64,000 bases of DNA from assembly GCF_003019035.1 (NCBI RefSeq), contig NZ_CP027448.1; one strand, given 5' to 3'. Origin of the DNA: Escherichia coli (GTDB lineage Bacteria > Pseudomonadota > Gammaproteobacteria > Enterobacterales > Enterobacteriaceae). This document shows positions 5,803 to 48,264 of the stretch, piece by piece (the stretch's first letter is position 1; every line of letters starts with the position of its first letter). Under the pieces are notes generated by a model that saw nothing but the letters and a program-made list of their open reading frames with translations, was not told the origin of the DNA and ran no database searches. A program made the position numbers and the translations under genes.

Positions 5803-8800
5803 TCAGTCTCCGCCCAGGGTTTTCTCTTTCTGCAGGTCACGAACCATATCCCGCTCCATCTGCTGCAGACGCTCCTGCAGCAGATTTTCCCGGGCAACCT
5901 CCCGGACCGCTTCCCGCTCCCGTTGTGATTCACGCAGCACACTATCCGGCAGCGCGGCTTCCCGTTCAGTTATGGCAGCCCGGTCACGCTCCTGCCCGGC
6001 AATTTCCCTGACAGCCAGCTCTGTTTTGCCATCCGGCAGGTCAGGTTTGTTCTCTGCCATTTTACGGACAATTTCATCTGCGCGGCGTTCCGTTTCACGG
6101 CGGATGGCCTCTTCAGCCTGCCTCTGTGCCAGCACCTCTGCCGTGACCGGTTCGCCATTTCCGGCTCCCGGCTGGACGCTGTTGTCCGGGATATCCCCCC
6201 ACACGCGGCCACCGGTTATGGCACCGGGATTCCACGGACGGCCTTCACCGGCGATTCTTACCACCACACCACTGTCAGGATTATCACGGGCAATCCGGAC
6301 ACCATCCTGCATATTATCAGCCAGCAGGCTTTCTCCGTTACGGCTGCCCTGCAGGGCCACAAACTGTGCATCTTCACTGCCCTTCACCCGGCCTTCACCA
6401 CTGAATCCCCGCAGCCCGTTTCCGTCATCCGTGGTCAGCGGGTTCAGCCAGATACCGGCAGACTTGCCGTTACGGTCAAAAGCCGGCAGTGCCACATACG
6501 GCTGTGGGTATTTGCGCCCCGGAGCAATAAACCGTGCAGGACTGTCTCCCCCGGCCAGCCCCGCCTGACGAAGAACGGCTCGGCCTGCCGCCACGTCCCG
6601 CAGCTCCCGCGCCGTACTGAACAGCCGCTCTGCATTCATGACCTCCCGGTCCGATTTCGGCTCAAACACATCGTGGGCAGTTCCTTTCTGTTCGGCATTG
6701 TTAATGGCATCCGTCCAGCCCTGACGGTTATCGGTGTACACCTGCACATGCTGCTTCATACGCGACAGGGCCACGTAGGCTGACTCAAAGCCGGCCATCT
6801 GTTTCCGGCTGCCTTCCGTGCCTTCAAGCGCAATGGCAAAGGTTTCACTTGCCCCCTGCGCACCGTGGGCGGTGATGGCATAGGCCAGGTCAATATGTTG
6901 CTCTGCCCGCTCCTGACCGGGGCGAATCACCCGGGTCTGCTGTCCGCCCGACAGCGTGACACTGTCACCGGAAACCGCTGTCACCGTCCAGACGCTGTTG
7001 GCCACATAGCCGCGCTCCCGGTCACTCTTCGTGAAGCGCATCCGGTCACCGGTCCCCACCCGGATGGTGTCCGGGGTGTACAGTGTGACACCTTCAGCCA
7101 CCGCCTCCCGGGGCGAAATCAGCCGCGTGTTACCTTCCGCATCCTGCAGGGTTATCAGCCCGTCACCCTTACTGATACCGGCAATCCGGTGATACACATT
7201 ATCCACCAGGACAAGTGCGTCCCGATGTGTCTCCCAGGTGGAGAGACGACGCAACTCCCCGTCGCGTATATTCGCTGTGTTCAGGACAGGCACCATGACC
7301 TGCTCTTTCCCCAGCTCACCGGCCTTTTCCCGTGCATCATGAATCATGCTGTTCAGTACGCGCCGGTCCTCATTCAGGTGCGTGACAATAAGCGTCTGCT
7401 CCCGTGCTTCCGGCGTCCTGCCGGTATAGTCGCGGACAATGGCTTCATACAGTGTCATGGGGACATCCGGAAAAGCCTCGCCGTTCTGCATCGCCTTCTG
7501 CTGCGCTTCTGCCAGTTTCGCTTCCTGGCTGTGACTGAACTCCGTCACAGAGTGCTCCGGTACCCATGCGCCCTCCTGACGTGGCACCTGAGACGGTTTC
7601 ACACTCTCAAGCCCGGACAATGCCCTTTCCACATCCCGGTTAATCAGGCTGTATACCGCCTCCCGCAGTTCCGGCGTCTGACGCACAATCTCCTTCATGA
7701 TGGCCACATCGGCAGCGCTGCGCGTCTGCTGGAGACGGAAAGGCTGACCGGGCGCGATGGCCTGCAGCTGGTCCGTGTCACCGCTGGCCACTGCACGACC
7801 ACCACCGGCCGCAATCAGGGCATATGCCCGTGCCATGTCGGTATTGCCCACCATTGAGCTCTCATCGAGCAGGAACAGCGTGTTGCTGAAATCCGGCGTT
7901 TCTCCGCTGCGCAGCTGCAGCTGCGTGCCATGCAGAAAGGACGCCAGTGTCTGTGCATCCACGCCGGCGCTGCGCATCTCCCCGACCGCACGGTGCGTGG
8001 GCCCCAGCCCCACGACACGGGGACGCTCACTCTCCGGCAGCATGTTCACGGCTGACATCACCGCCCGGAACTGTGTGGTCTTACCCACACCGGCATAGCC
8101 CTGCACCACCGTGAAACGGTCGGACGTTTCCAGTATCATGCGGGTGGCGGCACGCTGTCCTGATGTCAGACTCTCCATGACTCCGCCAGGGACTCTCTCC
8201 ATCAGCGGCGTGACCGCCTCCTTACCTTCGAGAATATGGCGAAGAATGCTCTTTTCTGCCTCATACGACGCACGGGAAACCAGCAGGCCTGTGCCATAGC
8301 CTTTTGCCACATCCACATACAGTAAATCACCGCGTTTTATCTGCGCATTGATTTCCCCTCCCAGTTCAGTAAAACTGGTTCCTTCTGCAGCAAACGACTT
8401 CGCCTCTGTCAGCAGGTCCACCATGCTGAAGGCCAGGTTTTTACTTTCCAGCACAGGAAGGGCCAGATGAATGGCCTGCTGTGCCGGCGTGTGAAGCCCG
8501 GCTTTCTGCAGACTGATAGCGGTTTCCAGCAATGTCTCACCGGCACGCGCCTTTATCTGCTCAGAAACCACCGTAAAGGAGGGATGGCGGGCAAGGTTTT
8601 CCGCCGTACGGGTTTCATCCAGCGAGGAATACAGCCGGACATCACGACCGCTGCGGGCCAGACCGTTCAGGGTGGCGTTGTCCATTGCCATCTGTGTGAC
8701 GGAGGCAAAAACCTTCGCACTGTCGCTGACGGAATGCCCGGGCGTTTCCACCCAGCCGTTCTCCAGCTTCAGTGCCGTGAACGGTGAATCGCTCACAGGC

Positions 8801-11094
8801 AGGGAGGCCGGTTCAGCCCGCCCCGGCACAACAACCGTCATCGAATCTTCACTGACGGATGCCACCTGCAGGCGGTCACCGCCGGAGACGCGGAGTCCGG
8901 GAATTTTCCCTGTCACCCTCAGACGCTCGCCGTCTGCCACCGGCATTTTTTCCGGCCGGAACAGCGACCAGCTGCTGTCCAGGGAGGAAATACGCACCAC
9001 CTGCGTTTCGCCCTGCGCATCCCGCAGGGTCAGGCTGTGACTCTGCGCCGTCACCCGATCGATAACATAGAGGTCATGACTGCGTGTCTCCGGGTTCCAC
9101 TGCTCCATCACCATCCCCGGACGGTACATATCCCGCAGATAACGGCTCCGGCTGTCCAGCCAGACCGGTGACAGAGCGGTCATGGTCACCTCCGGGTGTC
9201 CGAGCACGCCCTGTGTTTTCAGCTCACTGCGAACGGCCTGTGTCAGTATGGCCTGTTCCCGTACCCCGCTGACCTGTGCCACGCTCTCTTCTCCGGCTTT
9301 CACGCTGGCCGCAAAATCTCCGGCCAGCCGGGCATAGCGGACATTACGGTCCGGTTCACTGATGATGGTGGCCGGTCGCTGTTCTCCCCCCTGCCAGCGA
9401 TATGTGTTCACCCCGGCATCTTTCATGGCCATCAGTGCACTGCCTGTACCGGTTCGCTGCCCGCTGTCGGTTATCAGGACCTGTACGTTATGACGTGCGG
9501 CACCGTCCAGCAGGGTTAACGTCTCTTTCAGGGAGAGTTTTTCGCCCTGGTCAACGATAACAGTACTGCCCAGCGTGAAGGCCATGCCTTCCAGCAGCTG
9601 ACGACGTCCGGTTATCAGCTCACCGGACAGCCGTTCATCCTGCTTCAGGTTCATCTGCGAGCGACGGTCAGCAGCGATAATCTGCACTTCCCGCCCCTGC
9701 TCCCGGGCCATCATGACCAGTTCAGCCACCCGCTCACGCTGCCCGGCTGCACCGCCCTGCCCGGACACAATGGCCAGCGACGGACGGTCCTGTGCCAGAA
9801 CACTGACGGCATCGCTGTAGCCGGCCGTCCGGGGGACACTTTTCTCCGGATGTACGGTCACCCGGTTCTGTTTCATGATATCGCGACTGAGTGCCCGGAC
9901 TGACAGTTCATCGAGCACATGAATCCCGGACGTGAACAGCCCCTTCTCACGGTCAAGGGGGATGAGTTGCTCACGGCTGATGGCCTCATCGATACCGGCG
10001 CGTGCCCGTTCAATCACACCATTTTCCGGCGGCAGTATACCGACCGTTCTGGCCAGCACGTCCGTGTACGTAAACTGCACTTTTCGTTCACTTAATCCGG
10101 CAATCGCCTGTGTCACCGCCTGCTGCACATCCGGCCCCTCCTGTGAAACAGCCCCGGGCGCCTGCGTGCGGGTCTCCGCACGCTGATCCGCCGCGTCACG
10201 ATATGCCCGGATGTCGAACCCGGTTTCCTTCAGCGTCTGCATCCATTCAGCCATTCTGACTTCAGGATCGACGTGCTGTTTGGATTTTCGCGTATCCAGT
10301 GCCGCCACATCCCGGGATTTCAGCGAGGCGTCCTCCCCGACGGCCTCCCGGATAGTCTGCGAGCGTCCAGAAAAGGCCTCCACCGGTATGCCCAGCATTT
10401 CCCACATACCGTGCTGACCCACCACTTCGGTTTCATAGCCCAGCGCCTCAACCTGCTCTTTCAGTTTTTCCCGGTAGAGCCTGCCAAAGGCAATCTGATT
10501 AGCGTACACATTCTCAATGAACCCCGTTTTCCCCACTTTGTCACTGCTCAGTGTCTTCCATTCGCCGTTATGCTGCGTGACATTAGCCACCACCGCATGC
10601 GTGTGTAACTGTGGTTCCTGATCGCGACTGGTGTCGTGGTTAAACAGTGCCATCACCAGATTACCGGTCAGCACCGTTTCTGACTGTCCGTCCGTCATCA
10701 CCCGTGTGGAGGCCAGCGCCTCCACCTGACGGACAGCAAAATCCACGGCCTGGTTATGTGCTTCAATAAGACGTTTGTCCCCCCCGAGCATGGCCATCAT
10801 GGAGACACTTTTGGGAGCGGAAAAGGTCAGGTCGTAGCCGGGACGATGCCTGTTACGGCCATCCTGCATGCGGCTTAAATCCGCCCCGTCTGGCAACCTG
10901 CCCTCCAGAAGGCGGGTAAAGACATCCTTATCGACACTGCCCTGCAGCCCCAGTTGTTCAGCCCCCTGGCCGGCCCAGCGTTCTCCCATGCTGCCCAGCA
11001 CATAGTAATTATCCTTGTCGGTATAATAGTTCCCGGCACTTCCGGCCGATCTGACCTGCGCAATACTCATCATAAACGTATATCCCTTTGACAT
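5803..11094 (-). CDS. traI: TraI relaxase/helicase
   Basis: 1763-aa ORF ...MMSIAQVRSAGSAGNYYTDKDNYYVLGSMGERWAGQGAEQLGLQG..., essentially F TraI; start may be a few codons inside the ORF. Confidence 0.97.
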   Translation of the reverse strand: MSKGYTFMMSIAQVRSAGSAGNYYTDKDNYYVLGSMGERWAGQGAEQLGLQGSVDKDVFTRLLEGRLPDGADLSRMQDGRNRHRPGYDLTFSAPKSVSMMAMLGGDKRLIEAHNQAVDFAVRQVEALASTRVMTDGQSETVLTGNLVMALFNHDTSRDQEPQLHTHAVVANVTQHNGEWKTLSSDKVGKTGFIENVYANQIAFGRLYREKLKEQVEALGYETEVVGQHGMWEMLGIPVEAFSGRSQTIREAVGEDASLKSRDVAALDTRKSKQHVDPEVRMAEWMQTLKETGFDIRAYRDAADQRAETRTQAPGAVSQEGPDVQQAVTQAIAGLSERKVQFTYTDVLARTVGILPPENGVIERARAGIDEAISREQLIPLDREKGLFTSGIHVLDELSVRALSRDIMKQNRVTVHPEKSVPRTAGYSDAVSVLAQDRPSLAIVSGQGGAAGQRERVAELVMMAREQGREVQIIAADRRSQMNLKQDERLSGELITGRRQLLEGMAFTLGSTVIVDQGEKLSLKETLTLLDGAARHNVQVLITDSGQRTGTGSALMAMKDAGVNTYRWQGGEQRPATIISEPDRNVRYARLAGDFAASVKAGEESVAQVSGVREQAILTQAVRSELKTQGVLGHPEVTMTALSPVWLDSRSRYLRDMYRPGMVMEQWNPETRSHDLYVIDRVTAQSHSLTLRDAQGETQVVRISSLDSSWSLFRPEKMPVADGERLRVTGKIPGLRVSGGDRLQVASVSEDSMTVVVPGRAEPASLPVSDSPFTALKLENGWVETPGHSVSDSAKVFASVTQMAMDNATLNGLARSGRDVRLYSSLDETRTAENLARHPSFTVVSEQIKARAGETLLETAISLQKAGLHTPAQQAIHLALPVLESKNLAFSMVDLLTEAKSFAAEGTSFTELGGEINAQIKRGDLLYVDVAKGYGTGLLVSRASYEAEKSILRHILEGKEAVTPLMERVPGGVMESLTSGQRAATRMILETSDRFTVVQGYAGVGKTTQFRAVMSAVNMLPESERPRVVGLGPTHRAVGEMRSAGVDAQTLASFLHGTQLQLRSGETPDFSNTLFLLDESSMVGNTDMARAYALIAAGGGRAVASGDTDQLQAIAPGQPFRLQQTRSAADVAIMKEIVRQTPELREAVYSLINRDVERALSGLESVKPSQVPRQEGAWVPEHSVTEFSHSQEAKLAEAQQKAMQNGEAFPDVPMTLYEAIVRDYTGRTPEAREQTLIVTHLNEDRRVLNSMIHDAREKAGELGKEQVMVPVLNTANIRDGELRRLSTWETHRDALVLVDNVYHRIAGISKGDGLITLQDAEGNTRLISPREAVAEGVTLYTPDTIRVGTGDRMRFTKSDRERGYVANSVWTVTAVSGDSVTLSGGQQTRVIRPGQERAEQHIDLAYAITAHGAQGASETFAIALEGTEGSRKQMAGFESAYVALSRMKQHVQVYTDNRQGWTDAINNAEQKGTAHDVFEPKSDREVMNAERLFSTARELRDVAAGRAVLRQAGLAGGDSPARFIAPGRKYPQPYVALPAFDRNGKSAGIWLNPLTTDDGNGLRGFSGEGRVKGSEDAQFVALQGSRNGESLLADNMQDGVRIARDNPDSGVVVRIAGEGRPWNPGAITGGRVWGDIPDNSVQPGAGNGEPVTAEVLAQRQAEEAIRRETERRADEIVRKMAENKPDLPDGKTELAVREIAGQERDRAAITEREAALPDSVLRESQREREAVREVARENLLQERLQQMERDMVRDLQKEKTLGGD

Positions 11095-15448: not shown

Positions 15449-18270
15449 AATGGCCCCTTCAGTCGTTCCTTTTTACCATCAATCATTTTTTTCACAGCCT
15501 CTCCTGATGGCTCAGGTATTATCTTTTGACTTTCTCGCTCTTCATTATATTTATTATTCTGAGATAATGCTTCTGTTTTATGGTGATTCTGCAGTTCAGA
15601 ATACTGTCCTCTTACAATATTTTCCTCGCCATGTATGCTGTTCTGAGTATCACCTATATTCCCTTTATATTCTGTGACCATATTATCAACCTGATGTTTT
15701 ACATCATTACGGATATTACTGTCCTGTGTTCTTTGATCAATAATGGCCTGATGCCCCTGATGGTCAGCAATAATATTCTGGCTGCCACCACCCGAAGGTA
15801 CGCTCTCCATTCCTTTACCAATATCGCCACGGGATTCACGCCAGGCATTATCAACACCAGGTTGTACCTGTTCTTGCACAAAAGACCATGCCATCGCCCG
15901 ACGGCGTTCTGCAATCTCCGGTGAACTGGTGTTTGTCAGAATAGCTTCTGCATACTGCGGCGCGTGTTTCATCACATACTGTGCAAACTGTTGCGACAGG
16001 TCTTCACTCATCTGCCCACTCATGCTTTCAGTACGGGATGCCATTTCAGCATATTCATGGCTGCGGGTCATATTCGTCGTGTACTGGTCGTAACTCTGTT
16101 TCGCTGAGTTCAGGGCTGCAGACAACTGGTCCACGCGGGAATCGGCATTATTGTCAGTATGGCTTCCGGATTCACTGACTTTGCGACTGGTAAAGTAATC
16201 GCTGGCCTCTTTAAAGTCCTTACTGGCTCTAGCGTCAATATCATGGCGAGCATCATGGGAAGCCCTGCTGCCACTACTGGCTTCATGTGAGTCCAGATCA
16301 CTACCGTCAATACTGGCTCGCCCACCAACCTTAGCGCCAACATCAACACGCACACCAAAAAGGCTGGGCTTTGCATCTAATCCGGCATGAGCATCACCAT
16401 ACAATCCAGCTGATGCAGTCGTACTTCTCGATGCCAGTTCTCTTGTCGCCTGCTCATTACTGATATTATGCGCCTTCGCATAGCTTTCCACTGCACTGCG
16501 CATACGGCTGGCCATCATGGAGTCCTGAGCACTCATCGTGCTGTCAGCACCACCGGTGACAGAATCACTGCTCCCCCGGTTAGAACCAAACTGACTGAGC
16601 GTGTTCCAGGCACTGGCAATACTGCTGCTGAACCCATGCAGGGCACTTTCTGCTCTGTTCGATGCTTCCCGGGCCATTTCCTGTTGTGCCGCCGCAATCT
16701 GACGCGTTGCATTGATGCCGACCGGTAACCGGGACATCGCTCCGCTTGCATCCATCACCATATTACCATCACGGGTCTGTGTGGCGGTTGCGCCACTGCC
16801 GGTCTGGTACATCATCTGACCAAACGACGTGGTGCTGTTGGTGCTCCAGCTGAAGCCGTTCACGTTCTCCGTCTGCATGTTGCCGTAGGAGTAATTACCG
16901 TCAACCACACTGCCTGCTGCACTGGCGGTCGGGCTGATAGCAGAGGAAGCGAAATGGCTGTACACACTGGAAAATCCTGCCCCGAGCCCCCTGACCATCA
17001 TCCAGGATAATGGCGGGATCATCATGGAAAGATACCCGGCAGTGGAAGCCAGATCGGAGTATTTCAGCTGTATCTGTGAAATTTCCGAGAGCACCACCGG
17101 TGCACCATTCTGCTTCGCATAAAATGTCATGGCGCTGTTCAGAATGGCGTACAACATTGGCCATGACTGCAACCACATCAGGGCAAACACATAGCCTTTC
17201 AGGACGGACAGCGTCAGTTTGTTGAAGACAGCCGCCAGTACCAGGAGCGGGAAAATACCGATGGCGATCCCCGTCAGGATGGTCTGCGTCATGGGCAGTG
17301 TCCGCATCGCCACATGACCGATGGAGACATGTGCCAGACGTTGCTTCTCCATCGATGATGTGGTGGCCAGATTCACCAGGCTGGCCGAATCACCATTACG
17401 TGCGGCATAACTGGTGATCCCCTCCTTCAGCGCATTGATGGTGACATTCTGGCGGATGATCTGGCTGGCTGATTTACTTGAGCCATAGAAGTAACTGTAA
17501 CTGTCGCCAATCAGCGTACTGAACAACAGGTTCGGATCAGGGCGTCCACCAAATAGCTGCTGGGCATAATAATGCCATGTTTTTCCGCCACTCTGTGTGT
17601 CCAGATTCAGCTTGTCTTTCAGCGAAACCGACGCGTCCTTACAGGTCACGAAATTATTATTGCTGTCATAAACGCCCCGCAGCGGACTGGGGCGGGAAAA
17701 AATCAGCGTGTAAGGATCAGCGGAGGCCATCAGTTCCTCCAGCGTGTATTTGTGGTTCAGGTAAATATCCCCCATCACGCAGTTCTGCACATAATCCTGG
17801 AAAAGATTGGCGATTTCCGGATTACGGGACAAAAAGTCGGTGCTTTTTGATACCAGTTCTGCGCCAAACAGCATCCCCGTTTTGCTGTAGGTGACACTGT
17901 CCGGTTGCGTGAAGATCATCTCGTAACTGGCCACCATTGCATGCCCGATACGGGTCGTCAGTGAAAGTGGCATCGCCAGTCCGACCGGCACATTATCCAC
18001 CCGGTGAATTTTGACCAGGTCACTGTTATCAATAATCTGCACCGATGTGCGGACATTAACCAGCAGGCTGATAAGCACAAACACGGCCACCCAGCCCAGC
18101 AAATCCATCACGTTGTGCCGCTGTACCCACATTACGGCCACCGCTAGAACAGACAATGTGAGCGCAATTTTTTCAATGGAATCCCACGTCCGGGTCCCCA
18201 TAAAGGCGGCAATGGCATTCAGGTTATTCCGCAACCACTCACCACCGGCAATCACATAAACTTCATTCAC
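15445..18270 (-). CDS. traG: TraG mating-pair stabilisation protein
   Basis: 941-aa ORF, size and position as F TraG. Confidence 0.9.
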   Translation of the reverse strand: MNEVYVIAGGEWLRNNLNAIAAFMGTRTWDSIEKIALTLSVLAVAVMWVQRHNVMDLLGWVAVFVLISLLVNVRTSVQIIDNSDLVKIHRVDNVPVGLAMPLSLTTRIGHAMVASYEMIFTQPDSVTYSKTGMLFGAELVSKSTDFLSRNPEIANLFQDYVQNCVMGDIYLNHKYTLEELMASADPYTLIFSRPSPLRGVYDSNNNFVTCKDASVSLKDKLNLDTQSGGKTWHYYAQQLFGGRPDPNLLFSTLIGDSYSYFYGSSKSASQIIRQNVTINALKEGITSYAARNGDSASLVNLATTSSMEKQRLAHVSIGHVAMRTLPMTQTILTGIAIGIFPLLVLAAVFNKLTLSVLKGYVFALMWLQSWPMLYAILNSAMTFYAKQNGAPVVLSEISQIQLKYSDLASTAGYLSMMIPPLSWMMVRGLGAGFSSVYSHFASSAISPTASAAGSVVDGNYSYGNMQTENVNGFSWSTNSTTSFGQMMYQTGSGATATQTRDGNMVMDASGAMSRLPVGINATRQIAAAQQEMAREASNRAESALHGFSSSIASAWNTLSQFGSNRGSSDSVTGGADSTMSAQDSMMASRMRSAVESYAKAHNISNEQATRELASRSTTASAGLYGDAHAGLDAKPSLFGVRVDVGAKVGGRASIDGSDLDSHEASSGSRASHDARHDIDARASKDFKEASDYFTSRKVSESGSHTDNNADSRVDQLSAALNSAKQSYDQYTTNMTRSHEYAEMASRTESMSGQMSEDLSQQFAQYVMKHAPQYAEAILTNTSSPEIAERRRAMAWSFVQEQVQPGVDNAWRESRGDIGKGMESVPSGGGSQNIIADHQGHQAIIDQRTQDSNIRNDVKHQVDNMVTEYKGNIGDTQNSIHGEENIVRGQYSELQNHHKTEALSQNNKYNEERESQKIIPEPSGEAVKKMIDGKKERLKGPL

Positions 18271-35784: not shown

Positions 35785-36471
35785 TTATTTAACACCATAA
35801 AATTCACGAATTATACTTAATAGCGAATCTATTTCTCCTTTATATATACATGACACTCTGAATAAATCAAAGTGTTCAAAAAACTCTTTTATTTTCCGTT
35901 TAACTGGTTTAATTCGATCCTCAGATGCTCTGTCTGTAATACCCAATTCTCTGGCAATTGTTGCGTGACCAACACCCAGCATATAAAAAGAGAAAACAAC
36001 CAATGTTCCTGGAGAAAGATCATTCCATATCGTTAATTGACCAGAAGTATTTGTATTACTTACACTCTGATTTAACGCAAAAAATGGATAATCAGGAAAC
36101 GGATTAATTTGCCATAAAACAACAGATTCGTCATTATAAAAAGAAACATTCTCCATCCTTATCTGATAGATTTCGCCATGAAAATTAAAACGACGACAAA
36201 ATGCAGAGCCATGTCCAAGAGCCTGGCATTCCAGTTCAAGTGATGAAAGAAAAATTTCAACCTGCAGACGTATATAACTCTCTCCGGATAAAGGTTTATC
36301 TTCTCTGGAAAAGAGTTCAATAAAAGCCCCATTGGCATAAAGGATTTTCCGGTTTTTGTTACGGACACAAACCGGAACGGGAGAATTTCTGTAGATATTC
36401 TGAACGTTAAGGATGTATTTATTTACAGATTGACTGTTTAGTGGCCTTTCTCTACGATCCAGCGCACACAT
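35785..36471 (-). CDS. traJ: TraJ transfer-operon transcriptional activator
   Basis: ORF contains [38 protein letters not shown]..., which I recognise as an R100-type TraJ allele; GGAGG Shine-Dalgarno before the ATG at 36471. Confidence 0.8.
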
Positions 36472-36540
36472 AGGAACCTCCAGTAAGGATTCTATGGACA
36501 GTCGATGCAGGGAGTTACAGCTCCCTGCATCGGCGATTTT
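36466..36540 (+). ncRNA. finP: FinP antisense RNA
   Basis: Plus-strand sequence antisense to the traJ RBS and start, with stem-loop gatgcagggag-ttacag-ctccctgcatc followed by ggcgatttt; ends approximate. Confidence 0.55.
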
Positions 36541-36660
36541 CAGTTTCAATTTTTAACGTGGTATTAACCACATAATTAATATACTAATTATCTGACGTAT
36601 TGTCATCTTTTTGAATCATAAAAATTCTTATATTTGAACCAACTCAAACTTCATTTTCAT

Positions 36661-37044
36661 TTATTCATCATCATTTTTTGGGAAAAACCGGTCCATCTCA
36701 ACAGACACTTTCTCTCTGATATCGTCAACCATACTGGCATATTCAAACTTCGGGTTTCCGGAGACATGAGGACTGAGAGACTCAATACCTAAAATTTTCG
36801 CTACTGATGATTGTGTTTTTACAACGCATTCAAGAAGTAATTTATTAAACTCAGTCTGATTAAATGCAGACTCTTTACGCTCCATCTGAGCGTCATATAC
36901 ACGGAGCCCTAATTCAAGAAGCATTGAAGCAGTTCCTGAAAGGCTTATATCTTTATCTCTTGCTCCCTCCTGACGACGCTTTTCAACAATCATGTTAATT
37001 TTTTCATGAACCTCATTACTGATATACAGATTTACTCTGGCCAT
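36661..37044 (-). CDS. traM: TraM relaxosome protein
   Basis: 127-aa ORF MARVNLYISNEVHEKINMIVEKRRQEGARDKDISLSGTASMLLELGLRVY..., matching F-like TraM. Confidence 0.9.
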   Translation of the reverse strand: MARVNLYISNEVHEKINMIVEKRRQEGARDKDISLSGTASMLLELGLRVYDAQMERKESAFNQTEFNKLLLECVVKTQSSVAKILGIESLSPHVSGNPKFEYASMVDDIREKVSVEMDRFFPKNDDE

Positions 37045-37120
37045 AAGACAGTACCTTTTAGATTCTGAAATAAGAGTTTTATTTCATCTACTCATAGTAT
37101 GGTCTGAAAAAATAAGAGCA

Positions 37121-37176
37121 CCCCTAGCAGCGCCCCTAGGGGCATACTATAAAAAAACGCACGGCGCTGCTAGGGG
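37121..37176. promoter_or_regulatory. 14-bp inverted repeat pair flanking a palindromic core upstream of traM; candidate TraM autoregulatory/relaxosome binding sites
   Basis: cccctagcagcgcc (37121..37134) and its exact reverse complement ggcgctgctagggg (37163..37176), with cccctagggg at 37133..37142. Confidence 0.4.
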
Positions 37177-37220
37177 CGGCCCTAATATATCCAAATGTTT
37201 TTCATGAAAATTGTCAAAAC

Positions 37221-37272
37221 TGACCCTAACAAGGGTCGTCATAGGGTCGTTATAGGGTCGTCAACGACCCTA
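37221..37272. promoter_or_regulatory. Three phased direct repeats (agggtcgt at 11-bp spacing) plus an inverted copy; candidate accessory-protein binding sites in oriT
   Basis: agggtcgt at 37232, 37243 and 37254, followed by caacgaccct; spacing of one helical turn. Confidence 0.4.
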
Positions 37273-37344
37273 TTTAATAATGTAAAATAAATTAAAATAC
37301 ATTATTTAGAACATAAACTAATGATTTAAAAAACAAATCAGCAA

Positions 37345-37400
37345 AAACTTGTTTTTGCGTGGGGTGTGGTGCTTTTGGTGGTGAGAATCACCAACCTGTT
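37345..37400 (+). other. oriT: oriT nic region (F-type relaxase site)
   Basis: tttgcgtggggtgt|ggtgcttttggtggtgag matches the F-family nic motif as I remember it, with the adjacent inverted repeat ggtggtga/tcaccaacc; lies between traM and gene X. Confidence 0.8.
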
Positions 37401-37458
37401 GAGCCTTTTTGTGGAGTTGGTTAAATTATTTACGGATAAAGTCACCAGAGGTGGAAAA

Positions 37459-37968
37459 ATGAAAAAATGGATGTTAGCCATCTGCTTGATGTTTATAAAT
37501 GAGATCTGCCATGCCACTGATTGCTTTGATCTTGCAGGCTGGGATTACAAAATAGATCCTGATTTACTGAGAGCAATATCATGGAAAGAATCCCGTTACC
37601 GGGTTAATGCCATCGGTATTAATCCGGTAACGGGATATGGCAGCGGACTGATGCAGGTAGATTCCCAGCATTTTAACGAACTGGCCCGCTACGGAATTAA
37701 GCCAGAACATCTGACAACAGATCCCTGCATGAACATTTATACCGGTGCTTATTATCTGGCAATAGCATTTAAAAAATGGGGCGTCACCTGGGAGGCCGTT
37801 GGTGCATACAATGCAGGATTCAGGAAATCCGAACGCCAGAACCAGAGACGTCTTGCCTACGCATCAGAGGTTTACCGGATTTATACCGGGATAAAAAGCA
37901 GTAAAGGTATCCGGCTTCCGGCCACGAAGAAATCACTTCCGGAAATTAACAGCGTGCAGAACAATTAA
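37459..37968 (+). CDS. Gene X / Orf169 lytic transglycosylase
   Basis: ORF contains [57 protein letters not shown]..., matching F orf169; start set at the internal Met, track ORF starts at 37366. Confidence 0.9.
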
Positions 37969-38220
37969 TCTTACAGATATTGTCAGATACCGGTTATGCC
38001 GCAAAAGCGGCATGGAAGGCCACACACAAAAATATCATATGAGTGACAATACTGACTGGCCGAAGCCCCGCGAAGAGGTAACCCATCTTATATATACCCG
38101 GTAACTGCGCAGCCTCCTGCCAGACCATTTTTCGCGGGCACAATATTTACAGACAACCGGAAATCCGGTCGATGAAATTGAGGTATATCAGACGACACAG
38201 CAATGCCGAAAAATGATAAT

Positions 38221-38260
38221 ATAAGTAAAGCCCCGAAAAATTTTTCGGGGCTTTACTTAT
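38221..38260. terminator. 40-bp perfect palindrome, candidate bidirectional terminator between convergent genes
   Basis: ataagtaaagccccgaaaaa|tttttcggggctttacttat; GC stem with A/T runs on both sides. Confidence 0.6.
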
Positions 38261-38378
38261 ATTATCATGACTTCCACTTTCTGAACTGTTCGGCAATCAC
38301 CCATAACGCCTTGTTGATTCTTATATCACCATCAATACCTGTAATGGCTCTTGTCCTGGTATTTTTCCCGGAGGCACT

Positions 38379-39167
38379 TCACCCCGATAATCCACCTTTT
38401 ATCATATTCTCCTGAACCCGCTGCCAGGTTGTCCAGAGATCGTTCTGTTTGTCTTCCCGACGACGGGGAGTAATTATCTGTTCAGGTGTCACTGGCGTTT
38501 TATTTTCATCTTCATACCTGACCATCAGTGCAGCTCTGCCAAATAAATGTTGCTCGTCACTGTTAAGATGAATTTCTTTCATCGCCTCCATATTATCAGT
38601 GACCTTATCAAAGACACCGAGCACTTCATACGCTCCCTCGATAACCTGCCCGACAATATCACCTTTATGTGGAACGCGGATTTCGCCAAAATTATTTCCG
38701 CACACCAGGCCATTTGTGCAGACAAAACGAAAAATTCCGGGGATCATCTGATAACTGGATGAACCATCATGTGAATTAAGCAGGATAATTTCAGGAGCTT
38801 CCTGTCCGTTAATATGCCCTTCCCTGCGAAGACGTAACATATGTTTACTGTATTCGCGACGTCCCAAATCACGAACCCGACTCTGACAGGCAAAGAATGG
38901 CTGGAAACCTTCATCACGTAACTTATTGATGATATTGATTGTTGGAATATACGTATAACGTTCACTCCGGGACTCATGTTTATCACCGGAAAATACCGAA
39001 GGCACGAACTGCATTAATTCATCATCCGTTAAAGGACGTTCACGGCGGATGGAATTATACCGACCAAAACGGGAAGCTAATCGCATAACAGCTACTCCTT
39101 TATGAAAGAATAAATTTAATAAAAAATTTTTCCGCTTAATATCATCCCCCCTGATCTCCATTAACAA
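38379..39167 (-). CDS. Leading-region protein, DUF932-like
   Basis: 262-aa ORF convergent with gene X, the position of F orf273; family assignment from memory only. Confidence 0.6.
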   Translation of the reverse strand: MLMEIRGDDIKRKNFLLNLFFHKGVAVMRLASRFGRYNSIRRERPLTDDELMQFVPSVFSGDKHESRSERYTYIPTINIINKLRDEGFQPFFACQSRVRDLGRREYSKHMLRLRREGHINGQEAPEIILLNSHDGSSSYQMIPGIFRFVCTNGLVCGNNFGEIRVPHKGDIVGQVIEGAYEVLGVFDKVTDNMEAMKEIHLNSDEQHLFGRAALMVRYEDENKTPVTPEQIITPRRREDKQNDLWTTWQRVQENMIKGGLSG

Positions 39168-39514: not shown

Positions 39515-40142
39515 TTTCAGCCCCCATCATCTTTTGAGTTTCGGGAGCCGCGGTTTTGACGTTTTGCGGGGACCTGCCTTTTGTTCCCTCCGGTATTCAC
39601 CATCACCTTTTTGAGAACCTTCGCCGCAAGGGGCATCACTGCCACGGACGGAAACGACTGTCCGGGGGCAGACCGCAAAAGTTTTTGCCTGCTTTTGAGC
39701 AAAAAGTTTTGCGGGATGTACATTTCACCCCTGGACTGGCGGAGACGGTTGTGGCTGTATCAGCCCCCGGCGACAGGGGCTTAAACAGGTGAATGGCACC
39801 GGACAGAACAACGGGCAGGGACCCGCCGCAACGACGTGAAGCGCGGTTTGCGAAACGGCGTTGCCCCTTACATCCCGGCGGCCTTTTGCCGGGATGCCGG
39901 GAGCGCAGGCCACGGCGCGACAGAGGCGGCGCGACCGGAACGGTCGCTGCAAGCCCGGGGTTTTCACGCATCGGACCGTAGCGACAGCCCGAAACCGCGC
40001 CAGCGGGTTCGGCGGAGACTGGCAGGTGCGCCAGCAGCTGCCTGTCGGAGTCGGGCCTGACGACCGGATGCCGCCAAGCAGCCGGGAGCCGAAGGTGCGC
40101 CCGGCAGATAGGACAACACTGCAGTAGTCAGAATCAGAGCAG
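39515..40142 (-). repeat. Frpo/ssi-like structured repeat, copy 1
   Basis: About 620-bp GC-rich block shared with 44936..45565 and 48265..48880, each directly upstream of a minus-strand gene set. Confidence 0.7.
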
Positions 40143-40413
40143 AAAGAAAAAGAGAATAATCACAGGGAAGGTGATGTGATTTCTGACAGGCCATAACCAG
40201 AGAAGGCGGGGGAAAAGAACGGGCGCCGCAGGCGCGCGTTCATCCCCGTTCCTGAAGGGAAACGACCTTCCTGAAGTCAGGTTGTTCATGCCCGTACAAC
40301 ATCAGCAAGGAGAAAGGGGCTACCGGCGAACCAGCAGCCCCTTTATAAAGGCGCTTCAGTAGTCAGACCAGCATCAGTCCTGAAAAGGCGGGCCTGCGCC
40401 CGCCTCCAGGTTG

Positions 40414-40572
40414 CTACTTACCGGATTCGTAAGCCATGAAAGCCGCCACCTCCCTGTGTCCGTCTCTGTAACGAATCTCGCACAGCGATTTTCGTGTCAG
40501 ATAAGTGAATATCAACAGTGTGAGACACACGATCAACACACACCAGACAAGGGAACTTCGTGGTAGTTTCAT
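40414..40572 (-). CDS. hok: Hok-family membrane toxin
   Basis: Manual minus-strand translation gives [52 protein letters not shown]. Confidence 0.9.
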
Positions 40573-40630
40573 GGCCTTCTTCTCCTTGCGCAAAGCGCGG
40601 TAAGAGGCTATCCTGATGTGGACTAGACAT
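40418..40630 (-). CDS. mok: Mok (modulation of killing) overlapping reading frame
   Basis: 70-aa ORF overlapping hok in another frame, the canonical hok/mok arrangement. Confidence 0.65.
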
Positions 40631-40670
40631 AGGGATGCCTCGTGGTGGTTAATGAAAATTAACTTACTAC
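40600..40670 (+). ncRNA. sok: Sok-like antisense RNA (approximate)
   Basis: Inferred from hok/sok architecture, antisense to the mok start region; boundaries not resolved. Confidence 0.3.
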
Positions 40671-40851
40671 GGGGCTATCTTCTTTCTGCCACACAACACG
40701 GCAACAAACCACCTTCACGTCATGAGGCAGAAAGCCTCAAGCGCCGGGCACATCATAGCCCATATACCTGCACGCTGACCACACTCACTTTCCCTGAAAA
40801 TAATCCGCTCATTCAGACCGTTCACGGGAAATCCGTGTGATTGTTGCCGCA

Positions 40852-47801: not shown

Positions 47802-48032
47802 TCAGTTAAAAGCGCGTTTCAGTTCGAGTGTGCGGAGCACCTGCCCGAAGGCCGTGTTTTTCATGGCGGGGATGTGTACACCACGCCCCCGGTGAAAACT
47901 CCGGGCTATGTGTCGCCCGAAGGCTTTCAGCACGGGGTCAATTTCCGGCGCGGGGATGTCTTCGCGTCTGAAACGGGGATGACGGCGGGGCTTTACAGCC
48001 GCTGCGGAAGGTGAAACAATACTTACCGTCAT
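47802..48032 (-). CDS. Small hypothetical protein (76 aa)
   Basis: First ORF downstream of repeat copy 3, co-oriented with the operon; no family recognised. Confidence 0.4.
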   Translation of the reverse strand: MTVSIVSPSAAAVKPRRHPRFRREDIPAPEIDPVLKAFGRHIARSFHRGRGVHIPAMKNTAFGQVLRTLELKRAFN

Positions 48033-48264
48033 AAATGAAACTCCTTATGACTGTTGAATGGAACCGCAGAAACTGCTCGAACAGTTTTTGCGGTGTGGAT
48101 TAAGCAGGTCCTCCCCGGCCTGCTTTTTTCATATCTGCGTCTGACGTTCTCCGGTGTTTTCCTCCTTCTGTTCCTGCGTTCTCATTACCTGCCAGCCGGA
48201 TGACTGACAGAACAAATAAATGCGTATTGCCGGAGCCTGAAATAAATCCTGATTTTTAAAGAAC

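Follow-up and report, generated by a model that had tools for sequence, protein, structure and literature searches.

[quoted passage not shown] F sbmA is a palindromic four-repeat site in which repeats of the A(G/C)CG(G/C)T type are arranged around a symmetry centre, and a 75-bp F DNA containing sbmA and sbmB was bound by four TraM tetramers (PMC3159463). Each TraM tetramer of pED208 recognises 5-bp motifs, separated by about one turn, through two ribbon-helix-helix (RHH) dimers, with specificity given by beta-ribbon residues; Wong et al. showed experimentally that beta-ribbon residues 3 and 5 set the specificity of F versus R100 TraM, and the proven motifs are GANTC for pED208 TraM and A(G/C)CG(G/C)T for F TraM (PMC3159463). 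Motifs bound by one tetramer are spaced by 12 bp in sbmA of both F and pED208; when pED208 TraM was tested by EMSA on two-motif DNAs, it bound much better at a spacing of 11 bp than at 12 bp, and hardly at all at 10 bp (PMC3159463). On the nic side of these sites, according to the cryo-EM paper on the F relaxosome, the relaxase site extends from bp-2 to bp+9, IHF makes contacts from +23 to +60, and the arm with three TraY molecules runs from +43 to +94; a DNA whose end is at +143 is said there to include 'the full sbmC site' (PMC12117103).

The repeats considered here occupy a 415-bp gap between traM and a lytic transglycosylase gene (ORF list) in a 64-kb window, by which we mean the whole stretch of DNA that was analysed. 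Features of the region are collected in Table 1. On the minus strand, traM is followed by traJ, traY, traA and traL (all seen as ORFs), and the gene on the opposite side of the gap, gene X or orf169, is annotated as an SLT-domain protein in every matching plasmid. The region lies where an oriT would be expected, between the SLT gene and traM-traJ-traY, with FinP and the traJ 5' UTR downstream, as seen from the ORFs, the annotation of matching plasmids and Rfam. The initial annotation had placed the control region of an oriT upstream of traM, together with an F-type nic motif at about 37357..37385. This was borne out by the ORFs and by alignment with F (NC_002483) and R100 (NC_002134): the nic stretch GCGTGGGGTGTGGTGCTTTTGGTGGTGAG (37357-37385) is identical to F over its aligned part, 37357-37372, where the F and R100 sequences used for alignment end. 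The cut is predicted on the plus strand, which would therefore be the transferred strand; as in an F-like oriT, this strand carries GTGGGGTGT^GGTGC, and a cognate TraI is encoded in cis. The relaxase domain of this TraI is about 97% identical to that of F TraI and keeps E153, Q193 and R201, which have been named as determinants of relaxase-associated ssDNA affinity (PMC3245843). The imperfect inverted repeat beside nic has a counterpart in the repeat, important for TraI binding, that is drawn at this place for the R1 and F oriT (PMC3245843, Fig. 1 legend). Judged from its sequence, the region is a canonical F-like (MOBF12, MPF-F) oriT; it was matched in 4389 PLSDB plasmids, with an identity of at least 95% in 1214. 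Rfam matches at gathering score to three antisense RNAs elsewhere in the window, namely CopA (IncFII replication control, 624-713), AS-traG (17466-17551) and AS-pc01 (48027-48128), are consistent with an IncFII-type conjugative backbone.

Table 1. Features of the oriT region and its neighbouring genes, by position in the window. Positions from nic are counted with +1 at 37367 and rise toward traM.
Feature	Position	Strand	Position from nic	Basis or remark
traI	5803-11094			encoded in cis with nic
FinP and traJ 5' UTR (traJ_5)	36465-36573			Rfam matches
traM	36661..37044	minus		127 aa, ORF; adjoins the repeats
sbmA-equivalent putative TraM site	37120..37143		+225 to +248	aligned with F column for column
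TATAGT, -10-like hexamer	37146..37151	minus		between sbmB and sbmA equivalents; read by eye
sbmB-equivalent putative TraM site	37159..37182		+186 to +209	aligned with F block GGGGTGCTGCTAGCGGCGCGGTG
AT-rich spacer, IHF site B position	37184..37220			GACAATTTTCATGAAAAACATT block conserved in R100 and F
sbmC-equivalent putative TraM array	37221..37272		+98, +109, +120, +131, +142	repeat calls, register versus other alleles
sbyA-equivalent TraY site, R1 type (predicted)	37280..37302		ATGT +66, ATTT +76, ACAT +85	
IHF site A (predicted)	37314..37340		+28 to +54	TGATTTGTTTTTTAAATCATTAGTTTA toward traM
TraI relaxase putative binding site and nic	37359..37369	plus		GTGGGGTGT^GG; cut predicted at 37367/37368
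Imperfect inverted repeat beside nic	37377..37397		leading-region side	TGGTGGTGA gaa TCACCAACC, read from sequence
Gene X / orf169, lytic transglycosylase	37460..37968	plus		ORF; first leading-region gene, bounds oriT

Putative IHF and TraY sites were found between nic and the first TraM site, again as in an F-like oriT. At the predicted IHF site A, 22 of the 27 bases equal the R1 IHF sequence quoted in PMC12117103, and the core AATCATTAGTTTA (37314-37326) has one mismatch to the IHF consensus WATCAANNNNTTR. The predicted TraY subsites lie within an inverted repeat, AATAATGTA / TACATTATT, and R1 has the same ATGT, ATTT and ACAT subsites with the same 11-bp gap after its IHF site (PMC12117103). 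Farther toward traM, the AT-rich spacer holds only a two-mismatch match to the IHF consensus (37188-37200); it would occupy the slot of IHF site B, an assignment made by position alone.

What follows on anatomy, positional homology, co-variation with TraM and mosaic boundaries was worked out in the present analysis. Alignment toward traM revealed no indels relative to F and R100 from nic through the repeats, and the distance from nic to the traM ATG is 323 bp in the window, 324 bp in R100 and 322 bp in F. As first described, three direct AGGGTCGT repeats follow one another at one-turn spacing and end in an inverted copy: they start at 37232, 37243 and 37254, an 11-bp period, and the inverted copy occupies 37264-37271. 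Beyond these four, the 64-kb window has no exact copy; 1.21 would be expected over its whole length. A fifth core, the inverted GACCCT at 37222-37227, lies in the same 11-bp register; the array range originally given, 37221..37272, spans this core, although the accompanying description left it out. Read toward traM, the array pentamers are GGGTC, GACCC, GACCC, GACCC and GGGTC (+98 to +146), and their register equals that of the R100, R1-like, Klebsiella-type and F alleles. In 37118-37275 we counted nine copies of the hexamer AGGGKY, compared with 0.2 expected from the window's own density, and this count is the highest for any 158-bp stretch of the window. A chance origin of the phased repeats was rejected. 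A full-text literature search for CGACCCTAT returned only unrelated primer sequences.

Nearer to traM lies a perfect 14-bp inverted repeat, with arms CCCCTAGCAGCGCC (37121-37134) and GGCGCTGCTAGGGG (37163-37176). The initial annotation had this pair surrounding a CCCCTAGGGG core; both the perfect repeat and the palindrome exist, but the palindrome (37133-37142) abuts and overlaps the left arm and is not central to the pair. Palindrome and left arm both belong to a block that reads, toward traM, as four contiguous hexamers, GCCCCT, AGGGGC, GCTGCT and AGGGGT. In the aligned columns F has ACCGCT, AGGGGC, GCTGCT and AGCGGT, so that the inner hexamers are identical and the outer hexamers alone differ. 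Since the F block, from ACCGCT to AGCGGT, fits the account of F sbmA in PMC3159463, the window block would be the sbmA equivalent. The right arm of the 14-bp repeat falls within a second block, the sbmB equivalent. Both labels follow from the F alignment and the verbal description of F sbmA in PMC3159463, not from a printed footprint sequence. The core of the sbmB equivalent, GCTGCTAGGGG, is inverted relative to that of the sbmA equivalent, whereas the homologous F cores (GCTGCTAGCGG twice) are direct repeats. This flip amounts to two or three substitutions only and is of doubtful significance because the core is quasi-palindromic.

The hexamer TATAGT lies between the two blocks, and the matching F column is TATAGG. 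A sigma-70 consensus scan called no traM promoter, TATAGT included, so the hexamer is promoter-like by inspection only; we infer no more than that it may be a traM promoter element. The 'terminator-like' matches from the same scan are sbm palindromes followed by T runs.

The array and the GC-rich blocks had originally been presented as separate repeat architectures. This distinction did not hold, as both share one hexamer core, AGGG(G/T)(C/T), and the simplest reading is that, as in F, a single protein has three sites here. Their positions are those expected of sbm sites, with one in the distal slot and two (+186 to +209 and +225 to +248) by the traM promoter. The array, running from +98 to +146, lies past the F TraY arm, which ends at +94, and F sbmC is contained within +143; the array therefore fills the sbmC slot. 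The motifs are likewise of the sbm kind, multiple and 5-6 bp long, with a spacing of 11 bp in the array and of 12 bp between alternate hexamers in the sbmA equivalent.

The window TraM begins its N-terminal RHH domain with MARVNLY and so has Arg3 and Asn5. It shares 89% of its residues with R100 TraM and 87% with F TraM, and it matches the solved TraM structures 3on0, 4qpo and 2g7o (E = 4e-22 for chain 3on0_A); its exact-sequence cluster carries only the generic name 'relaxosome protein TraM'. A literature search returned no published footprint or binding experiment for this TraM allele, and for the ColB4 and P307 alleles it returned reference-list mentions only. We compared the pentamers with TraM residues 3 and 5 at 19 plasmid loci in five residue 3/5 classes, a sample picked from DNA and protein BLAST lists that is neither exhaustive nor phylogenetically corrected. 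Pentamers were present at +97 to +99, and then every 11 bp, at all 19 loci. Their sequence tracks TraM residues 3 and 5, each of the five classes having its own pentamer in the same register. TraM with Lys3/Gln5 (R1-like and others) goes with GANTC, and TraM with Lys3/Asn5 (F, Salmonella-type) with GCGGT-type pentamers. Arg3/Ile5, the R100 class, goes with GAGTC, GATCC, GACCC, GACTC and GGATC (GRRTC; the class also includes GGGTC), and Arg3/Asn5, found in this window and in pMAR2, with GGGTC / GACCC. The Klebsiella-type class, Arg3/Gln5, has six RAGTY sites: in two Klebsiella plasmids (L018, L019) with TraM of class MARVQAYASDEV, these are GAGTC, AAGTC, GACTC and similar pentamers with 11-bp phasing from +99 to +158, and the motif again appears near the traM promoter.

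R1 was represented by R1-like plasmids such as NZ_ON461901.1, and the comparison gave a view of which segments travel together. An R1-like plasmid matches the window over 37273-38500 (94.9%) and 36083-37002 (88%) and has no match over 37003-37272, the segment that holds the codons of the TraM N-terminal domain and all three sbm equivalents; the similarity ends precisely at the array edge, 37272/37273. Its nic, IHFa and TraY subsites are about 95% identical to those of the window, and its TraY and TraJ are 96% and 98% identical, compared with 75% for TraM, which has a different N-terminal domain (Lys3/Gln5). Its array stands at +98, +109, +120 and +131, with GANTC sites. Because the flanks match and 37003-37272 does not, the TraM N-terminal codons and the sbm sites appear to act as one exchangeable specificity cassette. 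In the window this cassette has R1-type flanks (TraY, TraJ, IHFa, sbyA) and stands beside an F-type nic and TraI. Among the other loci, L016 (NZ_CP095522.1) has the R100-type nic variant ACACACTACG together with an R1-type TraM and a GANTC array, whereas L009 and L017 have an F-type nic with the same R1-type TraM; from these pairings, nic/TraI and TraM/sbm specificities reassort independently.

The phased repeats, which the initial annotation had regarded as not assignable to TraM, TraY or IHF, can be assigned by their position in the sbmC slot and by their co-variation with TraM and not with TraY. A TraY site, in the form of an sbyA variant, is nonetheless an explanation to be weighed, since TraY is also an RHH protein that uses direct and inverted subsites: in F, three TraY molecules sit on two direct subsites and one inverted subsite, superficially like the three direct and one inverted copies seen here. 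However, the R1-like plasmid has GANTC rather than GGGTC at these positions, and a nearly unchanged TraY with different pentamers excludes TraY as their reader. The R1-type TraY subsites moreover stand apart at 37280-37302, separated from the IHF site by the 11 bp published for R1, and the array begins at +98, beyond the +94 end of the F TraY arm. With a sequence that does not follow the TraY allele and a start beyond that arm, we consider the array very improbable as a TraY site. Least probable of the explanations considered, in our estimate, is that the repeats are bound by IHF or some other host factor, or that they serve as replication or partition iterons with no relation to the relaxosome. 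Iterons and centromeres do typically have short repeats spaced by about one helical turn, but the array lies between nic and traM, colinear with the F oriT, and the replicon is elsewhere, as marked by CopA. No match to WATCAANNNNTTR with two or fewer mismatches was found within 37221-37272, and the repeat sequence changes with the plasmid-encoded TraM, whereas host IHF is constant.

A role mainly as single-stranded hairpins or cruciforms in the transferred strand, acting as a signal for termination, recircularization or helicase loading, is improbable as well, though less so than a TraY or host-factor site. As ssDNA, the two strands of 37215-37280 fold with -15.9 and -16.1 kcal/mol (z of -5.7 and -6.7 relative to shuffled controls), and the region of the 14-bp inverted repeat also folds well (z of about -3.4). 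Good folding is, however, expected of any inverted repeat. Across alleles, the identity of the pentamers and their 11-bp register are conserved, whereas hairpin geometry is not: the 13-bp arms of F have their centre about 11 bp away, R1-like arrays pair differently, and an extra unit in pMAR2 alters the pairing options with phase kept. A hairpin role does not exclude TraM and would be at most an addition to TraM binding. On the evidence of sequence and co-variation, the reader of the repeats is TraM, not TraY or IHF.

We conclude that the region is very likely an F-like oriT with two repeat systems that both serve as sites for the TraM which the plasmid itself encodes. The crystal structure of pED208 TraM with sbmA (PDB 3ON0) provides a mechanistic template for the window TraM, and for actual binding, stoichiometry, autorepression and TraD recruitment we draw on the biochemistry of F, R1 and pED208. 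A TraM tetramer would present two RHH dimers, each reading 5-6 bp, here AGGG(G/T)(C/T) with the core GGGTC. The array elements are 11 bp apart and so all lie on one helix face, along which tetramers would dock their RHH dimers on successive GGGTC elements. By analogy with F, TraM at the sbmC equivalent would sit just past the IHF-bent TraY arm, where it would connect the relaxosome with TraD, the coupling protein, and stimulate TraI at nic. The hexamers of the sbmA equivalent adjoin one another, which puts alternate hexamers 12 bp apart, a geometry in which two tetramers could bind cooperatively on opposite faces. The -10-like TATAGT lies between the sbmA and sbmB equivalents, whose occupancy would be expected to cause autorepression of traM. 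The array nevertheless differs from the sbmA of pED208, which has GANTC motifs, 12-bp spacing and two tetramers on opposite faces, in its 11-bp spacing and asymmetric motif. As GGGTC is non-palindromic and the elements are oriented one-three-one, unlike the inverted repeat of F sbmC, the exact docking geometry may also differ.

An early suggestion that the binding pattern might depart from that of F applies in part. F has the TraM sites sbmA, sbmB and sbmC together with IHFa, sbyA/sbyC and IHFb; the order, spacing and register of the elements in the window are as in F, as is evident from the indel-free alignment, and the nic/TraI site is identical. What differs is the sequence of the sites, the orientation of sbmB and the R1-type IHFa/TraY segment. 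The F motif is A(G/C)CG(G/C)T, with Lys at TraM residue 3, compared with AGGG(G/T)(C/T)/GGGTC and Arg in the window, and F sbmC is one long inverted repeat with 13-bp arms, compared with five near-identical 11-bp units. The repeats would differ from those of F because the TraM of the window belongs to another specificity allele, Arg3/Asn5, which is very common. F TraY is 131 aa long, whereas the window encodes a short, R1-type TraY of 75 aa, and its TraY site, IHFa segment and TraJ are also R1-type.

The closest sbm sequences are those of R100. Four TraM sites, sbmA-D, were reportedly identified in the R100 (NR1) oriT by Abo, Inamoto and Ohtsubo in 1991; a literature search did not find the R100 sbmA-D footprints. 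R100 has pentamers at exactly +98, +109, +120, +131 and +142 and the same AT-rich spacer, and its TraM shares Arg3 with the window, but residue 5 is Ile rather than Asn and its pentamers are degenerate. R100 also has its own nic variant, ACACACTACG. An R100-type origin of the window TraY and TraJ was rejected, as these are 49% and 24% identical to the R100 proteins, compared with 96% and 98% for the R1-like plasmid. The window locus is best described as a mosaic of known specificity modules, in which an Arg3/Asn5 TraM allele would operate together with R1-type TraY, TraJ, IHFa and sbyA and with F-type TraI and nic. The architecture itself is canonical, as known in F, and the TraM allele is very common. 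It is also possible, although we lean slightly against it, that Arg3/Asn5 TraM and GGGTC sites form a distinct, biochemically uncharacterised specificity class, a natural intermediate between F (Lys3/Asn5, AGCGGT) and R100 (Arg3/Ile5, GRRTC) whose sites are not recognised by F, R100 or R1 TraM, and that the number of 11-bp units tunes relaxosome-TraD coupling and transfer frequency.

At least 952 plasmids in PLSDB (E. coli, Klebsiella and Salmonella) encode a TraM at least 99% identical to that of the window, and the 86-bp array region was found in 509 plasmids (megablast). One of the former is pMAR2, the EAF plasmid of EPEC E2348/69 (NC_011603.1; L020), whose TraM is 99.2% identical and which has the same GGGTC/GACCC array and the same sbmA/sbmB blocks. 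Its array holds four central GACCC units rather than three (+98 to +157), and its nic-to-ATG distance is 334 bp rather than 323 bp. A 416-base query from the window aligned in one match to a 427-bp stretch, 11 bp longer. As the extra unit of pMAR2 is exactly 11 bp, the number of units is polymorphic and helical phase is kept.

The biological stakes are small. The analysis confirms the standard F relaxosome layout in a widespread IncF lineage, which includes the EPEC EAF plasmid pMAR2 and many resistance plasmids of E. coli, Klebsiella and Salmonella. The pentamer at +98+11n, taken together with TraM residues 3 and 5, offers a quick sequence-only means of typing TraM/oriT specificity groups, and such typing could help to predict which F-like plasmids are able to mobilise one another's oriT. 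Arg3/Asn5 TraM, in addition, is a naturally occurring single-residue step with which side chains of the beta-ribbon could be matched to the bases that they read. Elsewhere in the leading region, a stretch at about 39700-40200 reaches 72% GC and adjoins hok/sok (sok at 40570-40746). More than 5000 plasmids match this stretch, typically at about three places per record, and it overlaps only 'hypothetical protein' annotations; it may be a repeated leading-region single-strand promoter or initiation element.
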